A stretch of 64,000 nucleotides of DNA from Paraspadella gotoi. Taxonomy: Eukaryota; Animalia; Chaetognatha. Where the stretch lies: the NCBI GenBank assembly GCA_051294375.1, contig CM119265.1, forward strand, positions 24,921,605-24,985,604. Reading direction: 5' to 3'. Below the pieces are notes generated by a model. That model made no database searches. It was not told the origin of the DNA and worked only from the letters and a program-made list of their open reading frames with translations. The position numbers and the translations under genes were made by a program. This document shows positions 1,742-63,835 of the stretch, piece by piece (the first letter of the stretch is position 1; each line of letters starts with the position of its first letter).

Positions 1742-4700
1742 TGAAGGTAGACAGGGATAGGGGAAAATGAGAAGGTAAGTAGCGACGTTCGTGAGAGGAA
1801 TAAATCGAAGCAGAAACTACTATAATATGGTAAAGTATATGTAGTCGAAAATTTGACGAGAAAAAAGGAAAAAAGAAAGAAAAGAGTGAAAAAAAACGTT
1901 GTTGCATTCTCAAGAACAAGTGTTAAGACAACGCCTTACTTTTTGCTGGAAAATATGAAAGTTTTTTAATATAATGTTAAGAGAAAAAAGAGACTAAAGC
2001 AAGATCCTTCCAACTTTCCAGACCGACGCCCCCGACGTCACTTCTTCCCTCGATGTCTTCGTCCTAGAAAATCGCGGTCTCCTTCAAAAGATGATCAACT
2101 TCCTCGTGCGGGACTCTTCGCCGACGAGCGAGACTGTGGCCTTGGCTCTTCTCGAAGCCCTTATCCCTATCGGTCGTTTCATGCTGGACGAGAAGATCGG
2201 ATCCGATGAGACGACGACCCCAACGACCTCGTCCGCCTCTCCTCTTGTCGGCTTTCCCCAACTTATGGTCGTCATGGCGACGCTGGCCGGCGCCGGGCGC
2301 TCCGGACGCGGCCACACCATCCTCTTCTCTGCCTCCCTGGAGTGGCTCACCCTCTGCAAGCGACGCCTCGACCGACGTCGCCTCGTCGAAGTTCTTCGCT
2401 CAGATCTCGACGCTTGCGACGCAGAGTCGCGCGTCCAGGAAGGCGGCCTCGATTGCCTCTGCTTTCTCCTCTCCTATGTGGGCGAGATCCTCGGGGCCCT
2501 CAAAATGGCGTCTTCGGCGTCGTCTTTGGCTAAAGAAGCGCCGGCTGAGGGCGACGGCGCCGGGCAAGACTGGTTCCTTGCCGCCTCGACCGCCGTCGTG
2601 GACGCCGCAGATCTCGGCTTCCTTCCCTCCAACGTCGAGGCGACCGCGGTCGACGCCGCCGCCGTCGTCGATTCGGGTGACGAAGACTCTGAGGAAGAGT
2701 CGAGCCTCTGCAACAAAGTCTGCACCTACACCGTGACCCAAAAAGAGTTCATGAATCAACATTGGTACCATTGCCACACCTGCAAGATGGTCGACGGTGT
2801 TGGCGTGTGCACCATCTGCGCCAAGGTTTGCCACAAAGATCACGACGTCACCTACGCCAAGTACGGCTCTTTCTTTTGCGATTGTGGCGCCAAAGAGGAC
2901 GGCAGCTGCATTGCGCTGGTGAAGCGCCCGCCGCGAACGGCGTCGCAGGGGGTGGAAAATGTCGGCGCCGGTAAGACAGCAGTCGATTTATTTTTAATTC
3001 GCATGTATTTATTATGAAATTAGTATTTATTATGTTTTTTATAAATATTTGTGTTTTATAATATCATAAAACCTATTCAGAGATGACGATTTCAATCACT
3101 GATTTTTTTTTTTTTTTTTTATGGCTGCATACACTACGCCACGCTAACTTTCATCGTGTCGTCGAATCTCGATTATAATTTTTATAAGATTATTTTTTTT
3201 CTTCCTTGGTTTTGGTAAAGGAGTAAGTTTTTGCGCCCTTCATTAATACTTTTTTCCCCAAAATCCTTTTCTTTCCCCTCAGCGCCATCGACGTCATTCG
3301 CTCCCGTTTCTAACGACTCCGCTTCCCGCTCTGCCGCCGTCGCCGCCGCGCCGCTATCCGCAGCTGGCGCCGCTTATCACGATGACGGCATAGACGCCCC
3401 CTCTTCAGCCTGGGACCTTCAGCTGCTGCGGGCCCGGCAGAGCTTAGCCAAGGTGGTAGAGACGCAGCGAGGGCCGCTCGTCGAAGCCGTCGTCGCGTCC
3501 AACGTCACTCAGACCGTGTTAAACGTTTTGCAGGTTAGTGAGTATTATGATCGTGTTAATCAACTTCAAAGTTGAGAAAAAAACGCGCTCAGTCCTATTC
3601 GCGCGCAGTAAGTGGTCAATCGGTTTTTCTTTTATTCTTATTATATTACTTCTTTTTCAGGACATGATATTCGCTTACACTCGCGGTAACGCCGACTCCA
3701 AAACCCCGATCTTTCCGATCGGCAGCGCCGCCAAATCCATGCGCCATTTAAAAGATCTCCACACTCTTGAGAAGAAGGTGGAGACTGTGGAAAACCTGAT
3801 GACGCCGACTCTCGGCTCTCAAGAGGGCGCCTTCGAAAACGTCCGAATGAACTACAGTGGTGATCAAGGCCAACAGATTCGCCAGCTCATCTCTGCTCAC
3901 ATGCTGCGTCGCGTCGCCATGTGCGTAATGGCCTCACCCCTTGGCGCCGGAGCCGGCTCCGGCAAACGACAGCATCTCGCCGTCGCCCACGAAAAAGGCA
4001 AAATCACTATTCTCCAACTTTCGGCCCTCCTTCGCCAGGCCGACTCTTCCAAAAAAAAGCTGACCCTGACGCGGCTCCACTCGGCCCCCGTTCCATTCAC
4101 CGCCCTTTCAATCTCCAGTAACCCCTGCAACGAGGACGTTCTCGCCGTCACAGGTCTCCGCGATTGCCATGTGCTCGTCTTTGGCCCTTCGGGGTCCGTG
4201 ACCGACCACATCGTCCTTCACCCGGGCCTGGAGACGGGCAACTTCATCATCAAGGCACTTTGGCTGCCGGGCAGCCAGTCGGAGCTTGCCGTGGTCACGG
4301 CGGACTTTGTCAAGATCTACGACCTCGCCGCCGACGCGCTTAGTCCCCACTATTACTTTCTTCTTCCTACGGGGAAGATTCGCGATGCGACGCTCGTGTT
4401 TCCACCGGAAGGCGATGCCGCGCCCACCATTCTCTTCATGGCTTCATCGGGTTACGTCTATTCGCAAGCGATGGAAGATTTCTCCTGCGCACGACACGGA
4501 CCCTTTTATGTGACCAATGTTTTGGAGGTTAATCACGAGGATTTAACGGAGACGCCCACTTCCGGTGGCGGTCCCGGCGCCGGCGCCTCAACGACAGCGG
4601 TCGGCGGTGGCGGCGTTTCTCTACATTACTCTCACGCGCTGCAATTGCTGTTTTTCAGCTTCGCCTGTGGAAAGTCCTTCGCGGCGCCAATCAACGCCGC

Positions 4701-7832: not shown

Positions 7833-10800
7833 TCAATGAGATAAAGCTTCCAAGTTTTAGGTCAGATTGAAATTCAAGAAATCTTTCCAATTTTCGTTCT
7901 TTCACTCCCCAGATTTCCTCGACTTCCCGTCCTGTTTTCTCTGTCAAAAAAGAAGCGGATCGTCCCGACTCCCAAGCGACGCCGATGCCCTGGGTGCAAA
8001 AGTTGACGCTCGAAGAGAGCGAGCACTTTGCTTCTCGCTTGGTGCAAATCTTCTGGCGTCTCCTCCTCGCCCGGCCTCAAAATTCCGCCCTTGCCGCCGT
8101 CGGACTTCCGGGCTTGACTTGCGTCGAAGCCACTGTGCAGGTTGGAGTGAGAAAAAGGAGGCTTTCCTTTTTTCTTTCTTTTAATCTCTTTCTCTTTTTC
8201 CTCTATCCTTTTTTTCTTTTCTCTTCTTTTCATTTCTTTTTCTTTTTTTTTTCTTTTTCCTTCTTTTCGAACTAAATCATATTCCGTATTTTCTTCAGGC
8301 TCTAGTGGACGTGATTCACGCCTACACCGTGACCCCTTGCGAGGACGCGCCCACGGCATCCACTTCTCTTCTCGATGTCTTTGTGGATCCGATCAACACC
8401 CGATTGGCTACCAAGCTGTATGCTTCACTGCTGCTCTGCCCCGAACAGTCCGTCTCCTTCGCAGCCAAGTCTGCCCTCTTACGGATTTTAAAACCGAGTT
8501 CCATGACGAACGCCGGTGAGATCTCGCTTATTCTTTTTTTTACCGGTGGCTTTATTTATTCGCTAATGAGTGTTAGTGTTATAATATATAAAAAAAAATT
8601 TTCCACCAGGCGTTAGCAACGGCTCTTTCGGCCCGACCGAAGTCTCCGTTGGATCCTTTCAAGATGGCGGCGGCGGCGGAGGCGGTTCCGGTGGATCCGG
8701 TCACCGACGTCGTCGCCCTTCCGGCGGTGGCGCCTCTTCCGGTCCCCGCGGTGCCCGAAAAGTCTTTATTCCTTCTCCGCCACGCTGCAGCACCCCTGGC
8801 GCTGCCGTCGCCGGCTCTGTCAGCCTCGACGCCGACGACATGGACGACGATCTCGAAGACGTCATGGCCGATGACGACATGGAAGACGACGAACTGATGC
8901 AGACCCCGCCACCGATCGACATTCTGGCGCCGGGCAATCAAGACGCCGTTCTGATGATCGACTCTGGTTCCGTCGACGGCGGCATGCGCATCAATCTCGG
9001 CGAGGCGCTTCTCGCCTCCGGCCGCCGCGGGGGTCTTAGAGGCGCCTTACGGAGTCTTCGTGGCGCCGCCGCTGCAGCAGCCGGAGGTTCTAGCGGTCGT
9101 CTCATCGGACGCGGCGCCCGCGCTGAACGCAACGAGCTGCGCGCCGCGGCTTCGGCTTCTGGCGCTGCAGGCGGACGTGCTTTAGTTATCGCCGCACACA
9201 GAGGCCGCGGTCGAGGAGCGCCGTCGTCGAGAGGCCGTCCCGGCGGTGTCGGCGCCGGACGATCCCGATCCGGCGATCTCGATTTTCTCTCCGTCGAGGA
9301 TCTGGAGATGGACGAGAGCGATCTCATTCAACCCGATGACGACGACGACGACGATGTTGACGATGAAGATGACGTCGACGACGACGACGAAGAAGATGAG
9401 GACGAGGATGAGATGGTCGACGTGATCGAGGCGGACGGACGAAACCGCACCCTGGACCTAGAAGAGTTCTCTCAAGTTGCCGCCTCGAGGCCTTCGTCAT
9501 CCGGCGTTCCTCCTCCGCCTCGCCCCATTCGCATCCCCGACGCCAACGGATCCGAGTCGTCGCTGGGCAGTGGCGCCGGCGTCGAACGCTACGAGATCGT
9601 AGATCAAGTAGAGCCGCTCGGCGAAAGTGGCGCAGTTTCCGGCGCTAGTTCGCGCCACAGCGGCGCCGGCGCACCGCCTCCCGTTGATGCGGCGCCGTCC
9701 CTCGAGGCGTTGCTCGCCGGGCGCGGTCAGCAGCTACTCGGAGGCCCAGGAGCTGGAGTAGTTGGTTTTCCTCCCATCCTCGATATTCCTCCCGACGCTG
9801 ACGACGAAGCTATGATGGAGCTGGCAATCGCCCTCAGCCTTCAGGACCAGTCGGTTGGAGGCGGTGTCGCCGGCGGCGGACCTGGCGACCCACCGCCGCC
9901 GCTCAACCTCCTTCAAGACCTGCAGGCCTTTAGCAGCGTCGACTCCAACGCCTCTCGAAGCGCCGCGCCAAGTTCCATCGCCGTGGAGGCCCCAACATCG
10001 GCGCTCAGCGTTGGAGTCGTCCAATCCAACGCCAACTCGTCCGGGGCCGCTTTGATGTTGACAGGCGACGGCACCGGGCGATATTCGGACACGACTACCT
10101 CCGCCCCTGGCTCTGACGACGACGAAGGATCAACGGCCGCGACGGAAGGATCGACGCTAAGGACTTCACCCGCCGCCGACCGCGATGGCGGCGGAAGTCC
10201 CTCCGCCGCCGGTGGAAGCGGACAGGGCGCCTCTGAGGAAGGATCGGGCTCGGTGAGCGACGAGGATGCTGGCGTCTCCGCCGGAGATCCCAGTCGGAGT
10301 GGAAGCAGCGCTTACGGCGAAGTCGGGGCCGCAGCCGCCGCTCGGGGTGAACATCAGCGCGGCGGCGGCGGCGGCGGCGGCGGTGAACCGCCAGCATCGG
10401 CGGCTTTGTCATCCGAAGCGGTGGACTCGCGATCGACCGGCCACCCTACCGCCGCCGGCGGCGCTCCTCAGCAGCCCCCGCCCACCGGCGGCCTGCAACA
10501 AAAGCGACTACATCGGCTCCGTCTATTGCTGCTCGAAGATCTTCTGCAGTACATGTCGCACCTCAAGGAAGGCGGCGGGGTCCGCAGCATCCCCTACATG
10601 CAGGTGCTGCTAATGCTTTCCTCAGATCTCGATGGCGCCGAGGAGCGAGACGTCCGCGCCATGACGGGACTCTTGAACGTGTTGAGGAAACACCTCGACG
10701 AATTTCGAACGAGCGACTCGGAAGAGGGCGGCGAGGTTGCGCGTTTGGCCGTGGTTGACCGCAGCCCCGCCTCCGAGGTGGATCTCATCGTCATGCGCTT

Positions 10801-13800
10801 CTACAGCGTCTTGATGTCGCGAACTTCCTCTTCGAAATCAAAGTCGGACTCTTCCTCTTCATTCGCCTCTAACGCCACAGCCAAGTCTCTTCTCTCCGCC
10901 GACGCGATTCGCTTTTGTCTCAGAGTTTTGCAGCAACTTCTTCCCTATTGGACTGCGTTGGAAGTAACGTCGGCCGACACCCCACCGACCGCGGCACCCG
11001 GAGCCTCCACCACCCCCGCCGCCTCCGTTCCTAATTCTCCCGGCACGTTGATCAAGCCACATCCACCGGCGCCCCCTCCGGACATGTCGCCATTTTTTCT
11101 CCGGCAATACGTCAAGGGTCACGCCGGCGACGTCTTCGAGGCGTTCCCTCAGCTCTTAACCGAGATGGTGCTGCGCCTGCCGCTACAGATCAAAAAGCTT
11201 ACGGACGGCGCGGCAAAAGCGGCGGCGCTGCTGGACGTCGCCGACGGCGTTGTCAAGAGCAAAGTGGACGAGGCGACGCGCCTCGAGTCGGCGGCCACGC
11301 CCGTCTTCGATCAACAGTCTTGGTTCCGCGTCCTTTGCGAGTACATGATGACGCAGGAGACGCCCTTTGTTCGGCGCCAAGTCCGAAAGCTGCTGCTTTT
11401 TATTTGTGGCACCAAAACAAAGGTGTTTCCCGTGTACCAAAATTTATGTATATTTATGCAAGATTTAATAATCAATTCTCTCTTCAGTATCGCCATCTTC
11501 GCGACCTCCACGCCCTCGAGACGCACATGAAGCAACTGCGTCAACTCTGCCTCGACGAACGCTCCACCCAATTCCTGTCTCCATCCATGGCCGGCGGCGC
11601 TGCAGCCGAAGAGTCACGCCTGGGACGAGCACCCACTTTTATCACCATGGCCTATGAGACGAGGTTGGCCCTGATCGAGCATCTTAAAGCCTGCGCCGAA
11701 ATCGCCGGAAGTCGAACGGGTAAAAATGTGTGAGCAGCTTTTAAAAGTTTTTGATTTTTTTTACTTTTTTATATTCATGGTTTTTGTTAGACAATTGGCA
11801 AAAGTTTTGCCTGGAAAACGACGACGTCGTCACCTACTTGTTGACGGTTTCCTACCAATTGGACGAAGGCGTGGCACCTCTGCTGCTGCAGCTGCTGCAG
11901 GCTGCTCTTTGCAGCTCGAAATGCCAACAGGTCTTCTAAAATGCAGATAGTAAAGGTTTTGTTCAGTTTTAAGAACGATAAGATTTCATGACAATAGGAG
12001 GGAGGATCGACGTCTTCGCGCGCTTCGCCGACTCGGGCCCGATCTTCGACCCCCGCCGTTTCCGGCGCCACCGCCCCGGCGGCGACCGAAAAGAAAGAAG
12101 CGGAAAAGAACGATTCTGATACTGAAGGATGCGTCGGCGACGAGAACGCCTGCGTCCAACTCGTTCATCAGCTTCTTGCCAAATTGTCGGAGACTTGTTT
12201 CAAGACGGTAGGTTGCTACAAGAAAATAAAGAATGCAATAGATTCAACAGTGGCATAGATCTTTCCTTACCCTGATCTTCTTCGCGTTCGCTTAGGTGTC
12301 TCGTGCGCCGGATCCCCTCGCCCTCTTTATCCGCTCCTTTTTGCTCGAGTCGAACGCGACGGCGGTGAGATGGCAGGCGCACGCTCTGCTTCTCAGCATC
12401 TACAGAAACGCAACATTGAAAGATCGGGTCGGTTTTCTTTTAGTTAATCATGGAAGGCGGTGTTTTTACGATTCGCCTCTCTTACTTTGTTTATTTATTA
12501 TCTTAGGAAATGATCTTAGATCTCATGTGGAGCCTCTGGGCTGAGTTGCCCAACTATGGACGGAAGGCCGCGCAGTTCGTCGACCTCTTGGGTTATTTTT
12601 CCCTCAAAAGAAGCGACTTTGCCGCCGGATCGGGACGCAGCGGGGAAGAGAAAGGTGAGGAAAAGGCTGGCAAAAATATCGCGAATAAAGGACTTTTTTG
12701 TGACAAAAATGTTGCGATGCTTCGATTTCGATCCAAAATCCACATTTTCAATCTTTATCCTCAGCCACCGATTGCGAGTCGAAACTCTTGGACTATGTCT
12801 CCAAAGCCGTGGATGTGCTGCGTCGTCAGAACCACATCATCTGCGCCTCTCATCCCAACGCCAACATCTACACGATGCTGTCGGCGTTGGTCGAGTTTGA
12901 TGGGTTTTATCTCGAGTCGGACCCTTGCCTCGTCTGCAACAACCCCGAAGTCCCCTTCTCCGTAAGTCGAGTTCATAACGGTGCATCTGTTATCTGTATT
13001 TAAACTCCTTATTTATCAAGTTCCTCATTCGCTCCTTTTAGAACCTAAAACTGGCCGCCATCAAAGTGGACTCCCGCTTTACGACCACGACCCAAATCGT
13101 CAAGCTCGTGGGCAGCCACGTGATCTCTAAGATCGCCCTTCGCGTGGGCGACCTCAAGCGGACGAAGATGGTGCGCACCATCAACCTTTACTACAACAAC
13201 AGGGCCGTCCAGTCTGTCGTCGAGCTCAAGAACCGGCCTGATGTTTGGCACAAGGCCAAAAAGGTTGTTCTGGCCGCCGGACAGACTGAGGTCAAACTCG
13301 ACTTCCCGCTTCCCATCGTCGCCTGCAATTTAATGATCGAATATGCCGACTTCTACGACAACTTCACCGCCACCACGGAGACGCTACAGTGCCCGAGATG
13401 CAGGTGTGCTAGCGGAGAGAGAGAGAGAGAGATTGATTGATTGATTGATTGATTGTTGAAACCGTATTCTTTCTTCTCCCATCCAGTGCCTCTGTCCCCG
13501 CCAACCCCGGCGTTTGCGGCAATTGCGGCGAGAACGTCTACCAGTGCCACAAGTGTCGCTCCATCAACTACGACGAGAAGGACCCCTTCCTTTGCAACGC
13601 CTGTGGGTTTTGCAAATACGCAAAGTTCGACTACACCCTGACGGGGAAAGCCTGCTGCGCCGTCGATCCCATTGAAAACGAGGAGGACCGGAAGAAGGTG
13701 AGGAAAAAGAAATAAAATTTACTTTGATCAAATTTTATGAATAATTTTTTTTGGCTCTTCGTAAATGTTAAAAAAATGAATTGAAATTTTAAATCCCAGG

Positions 13801-15715
13801 CCATCCAGTCGATCAACGGTCTCCTCGAAAAGGCCGACCGAGTCTACAAGACTCTCGTCGCCTTCCGTCCCTCGCTAGAGGCTCTGCTCCTTCGCGTCTA
13901 CGACCACGGCAGCGACTCCACGCCGACCGGGGATCCGCTGGTCGACGGGGTCGTGGGTAAGGCCGCTCGGGTTGTGGGCGCCAGATGGGTGTGGCTATGC
14001 AGTATGCATAGATGAAGGAAGGGTTCTTGCCTGAGTGCTTACGCGGTGAAAAGAAGCCTTTTTCGAACGATGCAACCGGGGGAATGATTTTTTAAATCCC
14101 GGATGTTGCTTTCCGTCAGGTGTGGCATGTCCTCAGGGCCACCTGCTCAAGTTTAATGAACGAGACAATGGCTGGGCTTGTGACGGGCGAAAGGATCCGG
14201 GGGGATGCAAAAGGGGCATCACTGGTTTCCGACAAACGAGTCGGGTGCCCCGATATCGGTGCCAGTCTTGCGATTATGATCTTTGCGATGCCTGTTACGA
14301 AATCCGCAAAGGTAGATAGAAAATTACAAAAATAGGCTATTGGGTTGTTCTTTCCCCCCTTGAGGTGCGGAGAAAAGTAGAAGTGGTTTTCAGTGGTTCT
14401 GTGATTTTTGTGGTGGTTTATCTTTCATTCGTTCTTCTGGTTTTAATTAACAAAATCGGTTTTTGCACTCTTTGGATATCGGCTAGTCCTCGTCCCCTAT
14501 GTTCCTGTGCTCCCTTTGCTGCTCGACTAACTTTTTTAAGGAGAGATTCCTTGTGTTTCTCATTTTAAGTTGTTTTTTTGTTTCCTTAATTTTCATTAAG
14601 GAAATCTAGCGGTCATCAACAGTCTGCCGAGCGGGGTACCCCAAGGACATCCCGCCGGCGCCTCAGGGGGCGTCGCCCCCGTCCCACCCACTTCCGTCGC
14701 CGGGGGGCTGACCTCCGTTAATCTGTCCATTCAGAAAATCGCCCAGCGATATTGCGGCGATTGCAAGGCGAGTTTTAATTTATATTAAATAAAAGAAACA
14801 ATATATGTCATAATTACGTATACTCAAAAAAGAGGATTTTACTCAGGCCTCTTTCGAGGATCTCTCGAAAATCATTCAAAAGGTTTTGGCGACGAGAAAA
14901 GAGTTGGTAGAGTACGATCGGAAACAGCGGGAGGCGTCCATTCGGAGGGCGGCCGTCGCCACTTCAGGTGAGGCTTGAATTGAGGTGCATTACTCTTTTT
15001 AAATGATTTCAGTTGTTCTCTTACAGTTTATTTACTAACGACTAAAAAAAAAATTAAATCAAACCCTCCTTTCCCCCCTAATCTTCACGTCGAAGTTTCG
15101 GCCACGCCCCTCGCCTGGGGCTCCGGCGTCGTCGCCTCCTCCAGCATGGTGTCCAGCGCCACGACGCCTCTGTCGGAGATGGCGACGTCCGGCGCCATGA
15201 CGTCCTCGACGGTAGGCGCCGACGAATCTTGTCAGGAATCCTTGGAGTCACCGCGTCCCGCCGGGCGATGCTACGGTTGCGCCACCGCCTCCGTCGAACA
15301 CTGCATCACCCTGCTGAGGGCACTGGCTAACAACCCCGTCACGAAGAGGATGCTGTGCGACGAGGTGGGATTCATACACTCGTATATTCTCGCGTTTCGA
15401 CCTCAACCTTTGTAGTTGGCTTTCTCTTACGTTTACTATTGTTCTAATTCTCACTCACTCTTTCACAAACCGACTCTTTATCACTCCCATATGGAACCTC
15501 TCCCTCCTTTCTTTCCCAGGGTCTCGTCCGCGAGTTGATCGACTTCAACCTCCGCCGCGGATCGCCACTCGTTCGCCTCCAAGTCCGTACTCTTCTTTGT
15601 ATCCTGACGAAGAACAACCCCAGCGCCACGAGCGAGATGAACGCCCTGTTGATGACGCGGATTGGCGCCGCCATTAGGGGTCACCTCTCCAATCCTGAGC
15701 TGGTAGGGAAAGTGG

Positions 15716-23101: not shown

Positions 23102-25551
23102 TTAACCTTGCCCATCACGATCTCCGTAGGGACACGGAAGATTCGTGTTTATGCTGCATCGGTATCTGTATTTGTCGAAGTTTTGCTCCGGAAATCCGTC
23201 ATACAAACAATTGAACAAAATGGCGGTCACGACCAAGGCCACGTAGATTCCTGGAAAAACAAAAGGGCAGCGTTTAGACGGAAGTTAATAATTAAAAGAA
23301 ATTGATTATACTGAAATTCTGGTTCCCCCCTCATAATCCTACCGACCCATCTCCTGATAGTCTACTCACCCAAACCGACTTTCCACAAGATGCCCTCGTA
23401 AAATCTTTTCTTAAGATTCCGCAAGATGGCGAGTCCTATGAGAGCCCCAGTGATGGCGCCGCCCAAGTGTGCGCCGTGGGAAACGAGGACAGTTTCTGCA
23501 ATTTGAAAGAAAAATTTGATAGTTTAACGAAGGGAAAATAGTGAAAAACATATTAATAGAATTTTGAGGGAGGTCAAACAAATTTTTTTAAGACCAAAGA
23601 ACCACAAAGAAGTTGCCCCAAAGTCCCATCCATGCGTGTCTCCATTTTTAATTCACCTATGATCTTCCAAAAAAAACCAAAAAACTAGTTTTCACTCACG
23701 CGGTCTGAATCGGTAGTAAAAAACGAGTCCGACATCCAGCGCAATGTAAAGCACGAGGACGATGACTCGGATTTTGTTGTAGAGCATCTCCTTGTAGTTG
23801 ATGGCAACGTTGGCCACGTGGGCGCAGATCAGGGCGTAAACGCCACCTGTCGGTGTCAGGGAGGGCGTGTTGGAGTTGAGAGGTGTGGAGTTAAAGGAGA
23901 AGTAACGTATTAGCGGAAGATAATGATAATGACCAACTATAAAATACTACTTATGAAGCAGTGATTTTTTGAAGGTCTGGTAACTCGAGCATCTACATTC
24001 AATACTTAAATAAATATAAATATATAATATAATAAATATGGTACAGAAACATTTATATATTTATCTAATTAAAACAAACCCATTGGCATTGGTGGCCAAT
24101 GGCCTCCTCTTATCTTATTCGTGCAAATAGGGTTAGGCAGAGACTTACCCGAGGCGCCGACCAAACCGTACGAGACGTCGATCATGGAGTGAGCGAGTGA
24201 ACCGGCGATCACGCCTGAGAAAGGGAATCAATGGCCAATCGACGAAACATTTGCAAGCTGATTGTAAGTGGGGGTGGGAACATCGCCTCGTGCTCACCCA
24301 GGAACCAAATGATGGCGATACGGTGCCACTTGTGCACGATCTCCAACGGAATCCCCAGCAACAGCATGATGATGACGTTGATGAGCAAATGATCGATGGA
24401 TCCGTGGACGAAGGAGTAGGTGATCCAACGCCAGACCTCGTAGCGGAACTGAGGACTATAGACGAGGGGTGAGTCGCACGGGCATTTGGTCACCGATCCT
24501 GTCATCGGTGAGAGGAAGGGAAGAGAGTTCAGAGATGGGGGGGGGAAATTGGATCAGTTTCGAATTATGTTCTGACCTCTTAGCCTTACCTTTTTAAACA
24601 ATTTAGAGCTAAGAGCTGCGGATCTTACATTTTACAGCTGCATCTAAAAGTTTCCAGCTTTGTATGGCAATGGAGGCGAAAACTGATAAGCGCCGGCAAG
24701 TGGCGAGAGTATTTACTATTGGAACTTACCCCCTTTTGTCTCTAACTCCCTTTTCAAGATTCCAACTTACCCCCCATTTTCTCATCTCACTTTTCAAGAT
24801 TTGGGGGGTTATCCCATTTAGTCTCTAACTTACTTAGCAAGAATAAAATTTACCTCTCTTTTGTCTGTCATTTAGCAAGATTATCTCTTTTTGTCTGTAA
24901 CTCACCTAACAAGCTGGCGTAGACCACGAAGACGATGATGCAGAAGAGAGAAACGACGGGGATGAAAAGGGGAGGAGGCCGACAATTCTTGTATTGACTG
25001 TGATACCAGATCGGAGTCACGGCTTTGACGAACGCTTCCAGGAAAGTCTGCGGATTGAAGGGAATGAGAGAGGAAGAGAGATGGAGAGAGGATGGAGGGA
25101 GAGAGAGAGAGAATGAACAAGTAAAAAAAAAAACAAAATCGAAATAAACTAAATCGAAATCACGACGAAAGAACAATATAAAAATAAAAGGGCATCAACA
25201 GTAATGATAACAAAATTGATAACAAAAATAAAATAAGAGGAGAAAACAAAATGAGCCATACTACTGATTCAATGCCCCCCACGCCCTCCCCTCAACCACC
25301 TGCGCCAAGTGCCTCGAGTCCTTCTCCGGTCGCTCGTGAAGGACGAGCTTCTCGAACTCCTTGTACGAGATCCACCCGTCGCGGTCCAAGTCTCCTTGGC
25401 GAATCAGTTCGTCCACGGCGTCGCGCGGGAGCTTTTCTGGGAAATCTTGAGGAAGAGGGTCGGGGTAGGGAAGAGTGGTTGGGTAATGGGGTCGGGAAGG
25501 GGTGGGTTGAAATATGTAGGGGTCTTTGACTTTTGACCTTTTGGTGACTGC

Positions 25552-42342: not shown

Positions 42343-43696
42343 ATGTCTGGACTCACGGAAGACCAAATGATGGAATTTCAAGAGACTTTTTGTCTCTTCG
42401 AAACCAGAGGTAAGTTTTGAGGCGACTTACTACCGGTCTCTCTCTCTAAACCCCTCCTCTCTCTAGTTTTAAGAGTCCTTTAGTTCTTTAAAAAGTCAAC
42501 TCTTGCTTTTATAAGCTTTTATAAGTATTTGTAAATATTTTATTGTTGCGGTGAATGTTTCGCCATCACGAGATCAATCCTCACACCAACTTTGTCGATC
42601 CACTCCATACCCCTCAATCTTGACCTCCTTCCACCCCCCCCAAGGCGACGGCCGCGTCGAGGCGAGCAAGATCGGCGACGTGTTGCGCGCGTTGGGCCTC
42701 AACCCGACCGAGGCCGACGTCAAGAAGCTCATCCTCGAAGTCACGCATCAAGGACGTCAGTTTATTTTTACTTTACAAATTTGTTATCGGTGGAACGTGA
42801 GAGTTTTTTTTCTGTTTTTGATCGCGGCGCGATTCAATAAGATAATTTTTGTTGAAATGAGCTGAGAAAAAAAACAACTATATTTTTAGTCGCCAATTTA
42901 ACTTTTAAATCAGGCATTGTAAGTAAAAGGATAAAAGACAAAAAGAAGAAAGTAAATAACGAAACTTATTATCAATAGCGATAACGCCGAGTCCCGTTCC
43001 TCACTGCGATCCTCAACCCTCTCTACTCCCCCACCTCCCCCCCTAACACCCTCTCCTCGCAGAGAATCAAATCCAGTTCCAACAGTTCGTGCCGATCTAC
43101 CAAGCAGTCGCCAAGCGGAAGGACGTGACGACGGCCGAGGATTTCATCGAAGGGTTCAAAGTGTTCGACAAGGACGCCAACGGGTCGATCTCTTCCGCCG
43201 AGTTGAGGCACCTGCTCACTACTTTAGGCAAGGGGGCGATGGATTATATCATATCGACAATGTTAATTTTGTTATTATGACCGTTTCTGTCAATCGGTGA
43301 GTTTTTGTTGATTTATTTATATATTTAATTAAAATTTGTTGGTGGATCTAATAATACAACTGGATAAAGCTAAGTTATAAGTCTATATTATAAGTCATCA
43401 AAGAATCAATCAAACAACCAAATCGGGCAACATCAAATAAATTATTCACTAGTCTACTAAACGTTTAAAAGATCGTTTTAAATTTTTTATAAATCAATCA
43501 ATCAATCAATCAAGTATGTATGTACTATGTAATCGACATTCCTTCAATAAATCAATCAAGCAATCGATCAATCAACCTCCCAGGTGAGCGGCTGACGGAC
43601 GAGGAGGTCGAGCTTCTCGTCTCCCCGCACGAAGATCCTCACGGAAACGTCAACTACGAGGAGTTCGTGCGTCACATCCTTACGGCGTCGTATTGA
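42343..43696 (+). CDS. Myosin essential light chain, non-muscle type (Mlc-c / MYL6-like), 151 aa
   Basis: Exons 42343-42409, 42645-42755, 43063-43227 and 43584-43696 sum to 456 nt. MSGLTEDQMMEFQETFCLFETRGDGRV...IGDVLRALGLNPTEADVKK...[40 protein letters not shown]...GNVNYEEFVRHIL. Third intron is GC-AG. Confidence 0.95.
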
Positions 43697-53875: not shown

Positions 53876-55850
53876 AAAATGAGAAGAAAATTTCGTAAGA
53901 AATAATAGGCCCTTAGAAGATGTGGAAGCTCATAATGATGGTGATGTTGTTGAAGGAAAAATGATGGAGAAACTGAAGGAAAGAGGAAGAGGAGGAGGAG
54001 AAGGGATAACAAATTCGATCGATATCGAAAACGGATTCCAACGCTGCGCTATGCTACGCTGCGTATACTGACAATTTGCCACGAGAGCCCGTTGCTACGC
54101 GAAAATGCAAGGCCGTGACGGAGGAAGCGATTTCCCAAAGCAGAATGGCAAATGACAAATCATCTACATTTGACTGAATGATATTAAAATTTGATACACA
54201 TGATTAGAACGTATAAATAAAATAATAAGCGTTTTATCGCACATTGGTTACTCATTGCATTGCAAATCCGACTCACGTCGTCGAGTTTCTGCAGAATCTC
54301 TCTGATGACGTCCGTGTGAATTTCTCCTTTTCCGTCACGATCCAGGATCCTGAAAGCTTCTTTCACCTGTGAAGTGAGAAGGAATTGTGAAGAAAAGAGG
54401 CTGAGTGGTGAATCAAATCTACTCATACAACTAGACAGCTGCATGTGAACCGATCGAAACCGGGTTGGCATTGTTCTAAAACATAATTGTTGGTAGTGTT
54501 TGTTATGATATTAATATCGTTGAGAGTTCTGCCTTTTGGGAGTCCAGGCTACAATTCTTAATTCTTCATCCTTTTATCTTCCTCCTTTCTCATCCCCTCA
54601 TCCTCCTCTCTCATCTTCTCTCACCTCAACCTCATCCTGCGCCTCCTTCGTCTTGGTCCTCATCAACTCCATAAACTCATCGATGTCCACCGATCCGCCG
54701 CCGTCAGCGTCGACGATCTTGATGCATTCCTCCAACTCGTCGTCCTTGAGGTTGTGACCCAACATTCGCATCACCGTCCCAAGTTCGGAGGTGGGGATCT
54801 CTCCCTGACCTGAAGGAGGAGAAGGGGGAGGAAGAGGGAGGAAGGGAAGGGGAGGAAGGGGGGAGTGGGGAGGAAAATAAGAAAAAAGAAGTAGAAGAGA
54901 GAGGGAGGAAAGGGAAGAGAGGCAGGGGGGAAGAAGAGAGAGGAGGGGAAGAGAGGAAGGAGACAGAGTGGAGGAAAAGACGGGGAGAAGGATGGGAGGA
55001 AAATGAGAAAGAAGTAGAAGAGAGAGGAAGAGAGGAGGGGGAAGAAATGGAGTGGAGGCAGTGGGGAGGAAGGGAAGAGAGAAGAGGAAGAGCGAGAGAA
55101 TGATTTAGAAATATGAGGAGTGAAAACTGAGTGGAAAAAAAAAAGTCAATAAATATTGAAAGAAAAATAATTGAAAAATACTACAAACCTTATTTAAAAA
55201 GAAATAAGAAATCAAAATTAAATGCAGGCAAAGAAGGAAGAAAGCCTAAAAAATAAAAAGCAAAAAGAAAAAAAACCAAACCGGATGAGAATCACAAGTC
55301 GACAAGGCAATCATGCCGATGAAATTCCTTGTCTATGAGTTAAAATACCCGCCTTGCTTAAGGAGTTGCCACGTTTTAAAAGTTTCCCCAGAAGGAAGGT
55401 AAAGCACCGGAATGGAACTCGGGTCCTTGTAGACATTGAGCCATCGGTGTACTATAGTATACTTTTACTGTATCGTAGCTGATGATATTACTCAATGCGC
55501 CACCGGGTCAGGACTAAAGGTCTCATGCTTATAGACGGGGTTAACTTATGCAACGCCCGACTACAGTACCTTACAAACAGAGACTAAAAAAAAACAAAAC
55601 AAAACAGAACAAGCATTAAAAACAAAACGAAAGGGAAAATAAAACAGTCGTGCATATGTAGGATCGAATCCTACACATATAATAAGAAAAGATTTAAAGA
55701 AACAGAAAAAAAAAGTGAAAACAAAAAAACTGTACCGGCTGCGTCGAACTTCTTGAAGGCGTCTTTGAAGTCGGCGACCTGATCGTCCGTCAGCGTGAAG
55801 GTGTCCTCCTCCTCCTCCTCCTCCTCTTCCCTCGCGTGATCGTCGGACAT
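53223..55850 (-). CDS. Troponin C-like / calmodulin-family four-EF-hand protein, 163 aa
   Basis: Exons 55850-55736, 54809-54625, 54366-54277 and 53324-53223 sum to 492 nt. Loops: I DAAGQGEIPTSE (degenerate), II DADGGGSVDIDE, III DRDGKGEIHTDV (no position-12 Glu), IV DEDGSGWVDYDE. Sites II and IV intact is the pattern known for arthropod troponin C. A probable non-coding 5' exon donor lies near 57211. Confidence 0.9.
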
Positions 55851-55894
55851 CTCGGGTCTTCGTCGGAGGAGGAAGGAGACTGGAAGGGGAATTC

Positions 55895-56900
55895 CATTGA
55901 TTGGTTTGATCGATGGATTGATTGAATAACGTGATTGATTTGACTTCATTGATTTGGTTAATTGATTTGATTATCTGATTTGATTGATTTGATTTGATTT
56001 GATAGAGGAACTGATTGATCGATGGATTGATTGAATAACGTGATTGATTTGACTTCATTGATTTGGTTAATTGATTTGATTATCTGATTTGATTGATTTG
56101 ATTTGATTTGATCGATGAACTGATTGATTGATGGATTGATTGAATAACGTGATTGATTTGCCTTTATTGATTTGGTTAATTTATTTGATTAACTGATTTG
56201 ATTGATTTGATTGGTTTGATTGATGATGAACTGATTGATTGATGGACTGCAATTGATCGATGCGATTGATTGAATAACGTGATTGATTTTCGACCTTCAT
56301 TGAATTGATTAATTAATTTTAATTACTGATTTGAATTGATTTGAATTGGTTTTGATTTGATTTGATTTGATTCGATGAAACTGATTGATCGATGGACTGA
56401 TTGTCGATGGATTGATTGAATAACGTGATAGATTTGACTTCCATTGATTTGATTAACTGATTTGATTTATTTGATTGGTTTGATTTGATTTGATCGATGG
56501 ACTGATTGATCGATGGACTGATTGTATAACGTGATTGATTTGATTGAATTGATTTGATTAATTGATTTGAGTAACTGATTTTATTGATTTGGTTGATTGA
56601 TTTTTTTTATTTGACTGATTTATCGATGGACTGATTCATTATTTGATTGATTTGACTAATTGATTCGATTAATTAATATGAATAATTGATTTGATTTATT
56701 GATTATATTAATTTTATGAACTTGATTGATTGATTGACTGATTTATCGATGGACTGACTTGATTTAATTTGATTTATTTGATTTGATTTATGGATTTGTT
56801 TAATTGATCCATTTGTTTGATTGATGGAATGATTTCTTGGTTGTTTGATTGATAAAAATGATTGATTAGATTGATTGACTGATAGAATGATGGATGGTTG
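55895..56900. repeat. (TTGA/TTTGA)n-derived satellite with a higher-order period of about 110-130 bp
   Basis: Recurring gatcgatgga(t/c)tgattgaataacgtgattgattt landmarks near 55908, 56017, 56128, 56260, 56405 and 56510, decaying toward the right. Confidence 0.9.
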
Positions 56901-62741: not shown

Positions 62742-63835
62742 ATCATCCACTTTTTTTGTTTTCTCTAATTATCCTATTTTTCCCCCATATTTATTTTTAT
62801 TTAATGTTTGNNNNNNNNNNNNNNNNNNNNNNNNNNNNNNATGTTAATTTGGTTATAGATTTTTCTTTTTTCCCAAAAATCTTTCTTTCCCCCCAAAATC
62901 TCCCACTCACCCTGCTGCCGCGGTCGCCGCTGACGCTGCACCACTGCTGCGCTCCCGCCACGAAGAAGATCTGATCGTTTGTAAGGTTGAGACCGGGTAG
63001 GCGTGTCTCACCGCCCGCCGCTTCCGCCCACGAGAGGTAAGCGGCGAAGGCGGCGCGAAGACCCGAAGTGTCGGCGAGGTTCTCCTCCAGAGTCTCGTTC
63101 TCGTCGAGGGGGGAGAACCCAGACTCTCTGGGGTCAAGAGGAGGGGATTGGAATGTATGTGATTTTAGTGATTGACTCACAATTATTAACAAGTTTTTAA
63201 TGATTGACTCACAATTATTAACAAGTTTTTAGTGATTGAATCACTTTTATAAATAAGTTTTTTAGTCATTGGCTCACTTTTGTTAACAAGTTTTCAGTGT
63301 TTGGTTCTTTTTTATTAACGAGCTTTTAGTGATTGGTTCCCCTTCATAAACAAGGTTTTAGTGATTGATTTTATTAACAAGTTGATCATCTCATTCATTT
63401 TTAAATTAAAAAATTCTTTCCCGTTTTCATCAGCGATTGAATCTCTATTTTCTTGGCTTGCATCACTCGCGACAATGATTTGCTCGCTTTCTTCATGTGT
63501 TTTGGTGATCCCATCACATTCATGACATTTGTTTGGGACTATTTCACTCTCCAGTGGAGAATGATTTCTATCCGTCAGCCATTGGCTGCCATATATTTCC
63601 TATATTTCCTCAACGACTTCGGTGATTCTCCAACCAATGGTTTGCTCACCCCAGTGATTGGCTCACGCGTTTCCTGATTGGCTCACCTGTAGGCGGCGTA
63701 GTGATTGACAAGGCACTTGAGTCGCGCGAGGATTTTCCCTCTCGTCCGCGCGTCGAACCAATCGGGGCGGAGCGTCCCGTCGGAGTCGTAGTTGAGGCCG
63801 TCGATGCCGAACGCGTGGGCGATTTCGTGGCCGAC
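62405..63835 (-). CDS. M13 family (neprilysin/ECE-like) metallopeptidase, last three exons; 5' part lies beyond the window
   Basis: Exons 63835-63687 (VGHEIAHAF, HExxH), 63127-62911 (TLEENLAD, ExxxD; LPGLNLTNDQIFFV...WC) and about 62611-62405 (LRVNGP...EFAAAFQCPVGSRMHPGHRCDVW). Confidence 0.9.
63163..63382. repeat. ~33-bp intronic minisatellite (ttttagtgattgactcacaattattaacaagt-like, 6-7 copies)
   Basis: Read directly, in an intron of the M13 gene. Confidence 0.85.

Follow-up and report, generated by a model that had tools for sequence, protein, structure and literature searches.

In recent structural reports, the choice of substrates by the ubiquitin ligase UBR4 runs through ZZ zinc fingers, which KCMF1 supplies in animals and which sit within the chain in plants. 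The locus described here raises the question of whether an animal UBR4 may carry a finger of this kind in its own chain, and whether splicing may add or remove it. The window, meaning the whole 64-kb stretch of DNA that was analysed, covers the greater part of a UBR4 gene, rich in introns, on the plus strand, and a first-pass annotation had proposed that one skippable exon inserts a circularly permuted ZZ-type finger, a candidate second reader of N-degrons, into the ligase.

An optional exon in UBR4

The host gene is a UBR4 orthologue, as judged from the match of its Cys-rich exon to the human protein (Table 1) and from 228 UBR4-type matches at E<=1e-20. The cassette exon is preceded by AG and followed by GT; its length is a multiple of three, it is free of stops, and both the donor of the upstream exon and the end of the cassette are in phase 1. 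Whether or not the cassette is included, the spliced translation meets no stop through the exon at 14601, and the skipped form runs through six exons without a stop, given a GC donor at 14767. The intron behind that donor (14768-14846, AAG/GCGAGT) is joined across in RNA, and the frame is open at this cut only.

Table 1. Features of the UBR4 gene around the cassette exon (positions in the window)
Feature	Position	Strand	Description
Cassette exon	14120..14311	+	192 nt, 64 codons, phase 1/1; RNA joints on both sides and a skip joint
Upstream UBR4 exon	13800..13956	+	Helix (human 3735-3772) that follows the DOC2/BS2 module, then the linker's first half; donor in phase 1
Downstream UBR4 exon	14601..14767	+	Remainder of the linker, of low complexity, then the beginning of the next long helix, which matches human 3777-3808 weakly; GC donor
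Intron 5' of the cassette	13957..14119	+	163 nt, GT..AG; GC 0.515 vs 0.22-0.42 in three neighbouring introns
Intron 3' of the cassette	14312..14600	+	289 nt, GT..AG
UBR4 Cys-rich exon	13487..13697	+	Corresponds to human residues 3665-3734, where the DOC2/BS2 substrate-side module ends; E 6e-40
UBR box of the same UBR4 gene	2709..2926 (approximate limits)	+	Read from sequence; matches human 1688-1717

Evidence for splicing comes from the Logan contigs of one public run (X1) of one study. Its type is a guess; at least 15 introns between 11500 and 17500 are spliced out in its contigs, and we took it to be RNA for that reason. On the exons the contigs show no letter differences. Two further runs (X2 and X3) yielded no contigs over the region, which counts neither for nor against the exon. 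Both inclusion joints and the skip joint are present with GT..AG borders: 13956>14120 at a contig depth of 129.3, 14311>14601 at 160.5 (two contigs) and 13956>14601 at 161.6, where contig depth is not to be equated with the true level of inclusion. The contigs flanking the cassette reach depths of 322.7 and 396, and the intron stretch 13992-14099 has depth 0. Since inclusion and skip joints occur at similar depth, both splice forms exist and neither is apparently rare. The frame-preserving, skippable exon that had been proposed is thus borne out; the cassette is real and alternatively spliced, with next to no room for doubt. A pseudo-exon or contamination is ruled out, as the cassette is joined to UBR4 exons in RNA. 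Contigs of depth 2-6 also cover 14471-14627, across the 3' end of the intron before the exon at 14601, and represent either minor intron retention or pre-mRNA; one of them has a 2-base gap at 14571.

A profile of the encoded domain, run over the 64-kb window, found no copy besides the cassette. In the downstream linker (14625-14655), the residues G-V-P-Q-G-H echo the cassette start, G-V-A-C-P-Q-G-H, with different codons, and the profile scored nothing there; the echo may be accidental or may be what is left of a second copy. Further upstream, 8585-11530 is a 981-codon open frame of UBR4 with large Gly/Ala/Asp-rich low-complexity stretches. Judged by their motifs, other frames between 22000 and 64000 may encode a rhomboid protease (minus strand, about 24200-24550), a myosin light chain (plus strand, about 42500-43300), an EF-hand protein (minus strand, about 54600-56100) and the end of an M13 peptidase (minus strand, about 62800-63200).

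A predicted zinc finger of the KKT2 CL type

The cassette peptide (P0001, 63 whole codons) contains C3, H7, C20, C29, C47, C50, C55 and C58, the seven Cys and one His of the motif first quoted for it, which proved exact, and the acidic pocket residues D21, D51 and D53. From the ligand order of KKT2 and ZZ, two zinc ions would be held by C3/H7/C47/C50 and C20/C29/C55/C58. The ligand order of ZZ domains is CCCCCCHH (PMC4506424); that of the cassette is CHCCCCCC, and the spliced protein has no His pair downstream. With this difference in order and a Pfam ZZ (PF00569) score of 16.2 bits over residues 44-60 only, below the gathering score of 21.4, canonical ZZ membership was rejected. Membership in C1/DC1 (PF00130, PF03107) was likewise rejected: the C1 motif H-x12-C-x2-C...H-x2-C-x7-C is missing, and Pfam C1_2 scores 14.8 bits against a cut-off of 26. 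D51 and D53 align to D29 and D31 of KCMF1, and D21 follows the Cys that comes first in the ZZ order. The first Cys pair (C20/C29) contains an 8-residue insert, and the Asn that p62 uses after its second Cys is missing; given both, affinity and specificity are not readable from the peptide.

We think it very likely that this peptide takes the KKT2-CL/ZZ fold, although its structural match scores are weak. By single sequence, its best PDB match is 6TLY, the KKT2 CL (E 0.004); with a 16-sequence profile the same entry reaches E 0.0003 and the next match 0.18. The ZZ domains of KCMF1, HERC2, BIG and p62 are weaker matches over the C-terminal half only, and a broader alignment (A1) put the HERC2 ZZ first (E 0.006) and 6TLY second (0.012). 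The AlphaFold2 model of the peptide has a pLDDT of 74.8, with residues 32-39 below 50. Foldseek with this model returned 6TLY first and 6TLX second (probabilities 0.85 and 0.47, with weak E values of 0.13 and 0.37) and matched the p62 ZZ over some 20-49 columns only. In VIA, residues 1-63 of the model superpose on 578-636 of 6TLY (Z 3.8, rmsd 2.5, 53 residues, 30% identity) and the model also on 6TLX (Z 3.8, rmsd 2.1); three C1 entries reach the same Z of 3.8, but the KKT2 entries have the lowest rmsd and highest identity (30-31%) of the five, and no canonical ZZ entry is among the 43 VIA rows. The nearest Atlas cluster is 60% PF26235 (zf-KKT2_KKT3) at a score of 0.94, weak evidence as the recognition value of 1592 lies below the 2300 mark, and precomputed data annotate PF26235 in 10 of 24 close relatives; Pfam scans of the peptide itself did not list this family.

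The details of the ligands agree with this assignment. The C3-x3-H7 spacing is that of the ligands C580-x3-H584 in Bodo KKT2 (BsKKT2), and D53 aligns without gaps in the sequence alignment, and also in VIA, to D626, which is described as invariant (PMC8178753). The KKT2 CL is itself reported to be circularly permuted relative to ZZ (bioRxiv 10.64898/2026.08.13.744621, August 2026). The proposed permutation, with an N-terminal Cys/His pair in place of the C-terminal His pair, is therefore supported, and the pocket Asp residues are kept, as had been claimed; the finger as such is not novel, being of a type already in Pfam, and is not a Pfam ZZ member.

The domain belongs to a large family: among 1.84 billion representatives, 610 are relatives at E<=0.001, which argues against a chance finger, and 200 of them reach E<=1e-10. 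A profile search found 317 proteins carrying it; among the best 120 of these, a hand count of the Pfam column gives RING in 69 (many of them one family of about 375 aa), PARP in 15 and TIR in 5, and 25 further carriers include HECT, MIB-HERC2, ankyrin-RING, ubiquitin, kinase and channel proteins, and exchangers too. The domain is promiscuous, given its presence on PARP, TIR, kinase and ion-channel proteins. Across 546 copies from 238 proteins, D21 is kept in 424/538, D51 in 436/540 and D53 in 504/539; the first ligand pair is H-x-H in 349 copies and C-x3-H in 139. Two to eight copies per protein are held by 169 of 236 carriers. In P0002, the first ligand pair follows the Cys core of the preceding copy, which suggests that tandem arrays could offer an easy route between the ZZ and permuted orders. 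All 12 labelled carrier taxa are non-animal (Amoeba, Pelomyxa, Mastigamoeba, five dinoflagellate taxa, Picomonas, Chlorochromonas, Lotharella and one fungal label, Orpsp1, which we take to be Orpinomyces), where labels exist for a minority of carriers and tandem arrays are favoured in the ranking. A giant HECT/SPRY ligase also has this finger, as do MIB-HERC2, ankyrin-RING, RING-TRAF and ubiquitin-domain proteins (P0146, P0088, P0072, P0080, P0159), which by analogy are candidate N-recognins.

Insertion site and history of the exon

The cassette inserts at about human residues 3772-3790, directly after DOC2, for which the human deletion spans 3538-3721 (PMC12286842). In a model of an orthologue fragment, which matches UBR4 cryo-EM entries, the insertion site is a loop (349-360, pLDDT <50) between two long helices (306-348 and 359-409), a flexible turn in which the finger could fold without breaking the scaffold. 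The human ring is reported to hold coiled coils where the C-terminal interface faces inwards, with substrate cross-links near DOC2 (PMC12286842); if the helices of the model are these coiled coils, the insert would face the cavity.

No UBR4 other than that of the window was found to carry the finger: the domain profile scored in 0 of 120 UBR4 fragments, 108 of which span the insertion site. These come from proteins of <=2000 aa, clustered into 50%-identity representatives, one of which may stand for (hide) an isoform; many are insect-like and redundant, and a skip isoform would hide the exon. The spanning fragments (70 distinct strings) have 37-73 residues between the anchors, compared with 84 in the skipped and 148 in the included form here. 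Taxon labels among the UBR4 rows cover a spider, a barnacle, insects, molluscs, Priapulus, Saccoglossus and fishes, and the UBR4 tree places that of the window outside the insect clade, with weak support.

Some metagenome sequences resemble the bare exon. P0061, the best relative (44/63 identical to the cassette peptide), the group P0016/17/0363/0364 (37/63 for the three aligned) and P0157 (33/63) are short gene calls, those checked lying on contigs of about 1 kb. In a tree from a short alignment (58 of 496 near-complete copies; P0157 is outside it), the cassette peptide groups with P0017, P0061 and P0089 at support 98/84. On both sides, P0061 ends at Gly-bearing positions that match the genomic reading frame of the cassette. 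P0016 and P0017 become identical shortly before the domain starts, and their upstream parts fit one DNA in two frames over 27 codons, where the best of 300 shuffles gave 7; an intron would produce this pattern. We infer from these sequences that the three groups may be the same phase-1 exon in other intron-rich genomes; that the cassette is conserved in UBR4 there is a lead only. UBR4 probes matched none of 81 loci and none of 238 carrier proteins among the relatives, whose contigs are short.

The cassette has a low third-position GC, 33/63 against 45.5 expected from the codon use of the gene (P ~0.0005, z -3.6), and one of 18 constitutive exons is nearly as low (z -2.8). Together with labelled relatives that are all protist-type, this makes a horizontal origin possible; the data agree equally with an old eukaryotic domain that was retained patchily and spread by exon shuffling. 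Viral contigs and prokaryote genomes each gave one weak locus, neither of which supports a vector, and the 'virus' cluster of the Atlas is one record. No donor can be named from the domain tree, whose columns are too few. A wider scenario can be drawn, in which a protist-type permuted-ZZ phase-1 exon entered an animal lineage, possibly by horizontal transfer, and was kept in the UBR4 of several invertebrates; splicing would there switch the N-degron specificity of UBR4/KCMF1, converging on BIG, and the same finger would be the receptor of a large class of protist RING N-recognins, with KKT2 CL as one offshoot. As a whole we regard this scenario as doubtful.

A candidate reader of free N-termini

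What the finger might do can be approached through its relatives. In Trypanosoma brucei KKT2, D622 (the equivalent of BsKKT2 D626) is reported to be required for binding histone H3's free N-terminus (Kd 60 uM), binding is lost with D622E or with N-acetyl or N-methyl groups, and H3 is bound far more than H2A, H2B or H4 (10.64898/2026.08.13.744621). Among ZZ domains, mutation of D29/D31 in KCMF1 is described as ablating the recognition of an N-degron substrate (PMC12286842), the internal ZZ of plant BIG binds N-Arg peptides (PMC7618180), and in PRT1 and p62 an Asp pair holds the alpha-amino group (PMC11668491). Alignment to KKT2 and KCMF1 strongly supports retention of the N-terminus-binding Asp in the cassette finger. 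We therefore think it probable, by analogy, that the finger binds free N-termini, and slightly favour the view that it helps UBR4 to select substrates. For the human complex, it is reported that the ZZ of KCMF1 acts as the working N-degron receptor and as a filter, and that the UBR box of UBR4 was dispensable for the substrates tested (bioRxiv 10.1101/2024.12.18.629163). The description of the finger as a second N-degron reader is hence an undercount; beside the UBR box and the KCMF1 ZZ it would be a third candidate site.

Our main reading, to which we give a probability of about 0.58, is that the optional finger would act as an extra N-terminus-binding site in the UBR4 ring, a substrate receptor or filter. 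The UBR4 gene yields two in-frame transcripts, with and without the 64-codon exon; the predicted permuted ZZ finger, facing the central cavity of the ring, would grip the first residue of a protein by its free alpha-amino group and so bind unmodified N-termini, and it would shift which pre-ubiquitinated proteins receive K48 chains, as the BIG internal ZZ and the KCMF1 ZZ do. If this is true, splicing tunes which proteins UBR4 marks for destruction, and a 64-residue module gives a quality-control ligase an adjustable choice of substrates.

A functional finger could also work without reading N-termini, as a C1/DC1-like module docking onto a partner protein, lipid or membrane, or as a steric gate. 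The tie of KKT2 with the C1 domains of PKC and MRCK in VIA, a C1_2 score close to that for ZZ, the family members on channels, exchangers and kinases, and the reported restriction of access by the KCMF1 ZZ-DZB as a filter (bioRxiv 10.1101/2024.12.18.629163) all point that way; identity to the C1 entries, however, is 14-23%, below that to KKT2, the His-first C1 motif (PMC8178753) is missing, and the three Asp are among the best-kept non-ligand positions of the family, so that we hold docking or gating to be unlikely. Reading of a specific free N-terminus, such as that of histone H3, could instead localise the included isoform rather than choose its substrates. The ligand of KKT2 CL is histone H3, which is no degron, and this is the sole member of the permuted family tested in the reports consulted; ZZ-H3 structures of HERC2 and p300 are also among the weak PDB matches. 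The insert nevertheless adjoins the DOC2/BS2 module, close to the substrate cross-links of the human ring, and nothing found points to chromatin, which makes localisation quite improbable.

A further possibility is that the exon is a captured fragment, perhaps from a protist, tolerated in a floppy loop, half skipped and without selected work. The non-animal labels of the carriers, the depressed third-position GC and the lack of the domain in the UBR4 fragments would all suit such a passenger. Against it, all eight ligands and the three Asp are intact, the best relative is identical at more than two thirds of positions, and a constitutive exon is nearly as poor in third-position GC; the exon-like relatives with apparently the same phase in other genomes further suggest age and selection. 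We give the passenger as little credence as localisation, and retain the extra N-terminus-binding site as the preferred reading.

Relation to known systems

In the largely open-access literature searched, we found no animal UBR4 with such a finger and no report of its alternative splicing; supplementary ZZ alignments, for instance Fig. S18 of PMC7618180, may bear on how broadly internal ZZ domains have been surveyed. Already published are the permuted ZZ fold and its binding of free N-termini, for the KKT2 CL family, and the internal ZZ of plant UBR4. New here is an animal UBR4 with a splice-optional, internal candidate N-terminus reader at a site distinct from the BIG ZZ. The BIG ZZ lies near residue 2600, upstream of the Cys-rich region. 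That region is at 3453-3517 in BIG, and the cassette is downstream of the corresponding one, so that comparing the positions, as had been suggested, places it at another site. Orthology to the BIG ZZ was rejected, since position and ligand order differ, and the two are probably independent gains.

The plant and animal proteins are alike in having an N-terminus-type zinc finger within the UBR4 chain (BIG: PMC7618180; 9LGS/9LGR), where N-terminus binding by the cassette finger is assumed by analogy. The BIG ZZ is canonical and constitutive, and is reported to stand in for the ZZ missing from its partner DI19 (PMC7618180). With the ZZ domains of KCMF1, p62/SQSTM1, PRT1 and HERC2 (PF00569), the cassette finger shares the half that reads R-Y-x-C-xx-C-DYDLC-xx-C, together with the Asp residues by which the alpha-amino group is held; unlike them, it has an N-terminal Cys/His pair instead of the two C-terminal His and falls below the Pfam cut-off.

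The closest structural precedent is the CL of KKT2/KKT3 (PF26235; 6TLY/6TLX; PMC8178753, 10.64898/2026.08.13.744621), which shares the N-terminal C-x3-H pair, the C-terminal CxxC-DYD-x-CxxC, the invariant Asp (D626, cassette D53) and the circular permutation relative to ZZ. In contrast to KKT2 CL, the cassette is a splice-optional insert in an animal ubiquitin ligase, about 30% identical; its first Cys pair is spaced by 8 residues and has a ZZ-like Asp right behind its first Cys. Related in sequence are protist proteins with tandem PF26235 domains beside RING, PARP, TIR or HECT (Amoeba, Pelomyxa, Mastigamoeba, dinoflagellates, Picomonas, Lotharella), 52-72% identical to the cassette peptide and sharing the GW-x-CDG and GC...TGF-x-QT motifs of the family; they differ in mostly holding 2-8 copies, in mostly having H-x-H as the first pair, and in matching UBR4 in none of the 238. 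The KKT2 centromere domain, called unique in 2021, is thereby tied to a broad eukaryotic family that is often fused to RING and whose members are candidate N-recognins.
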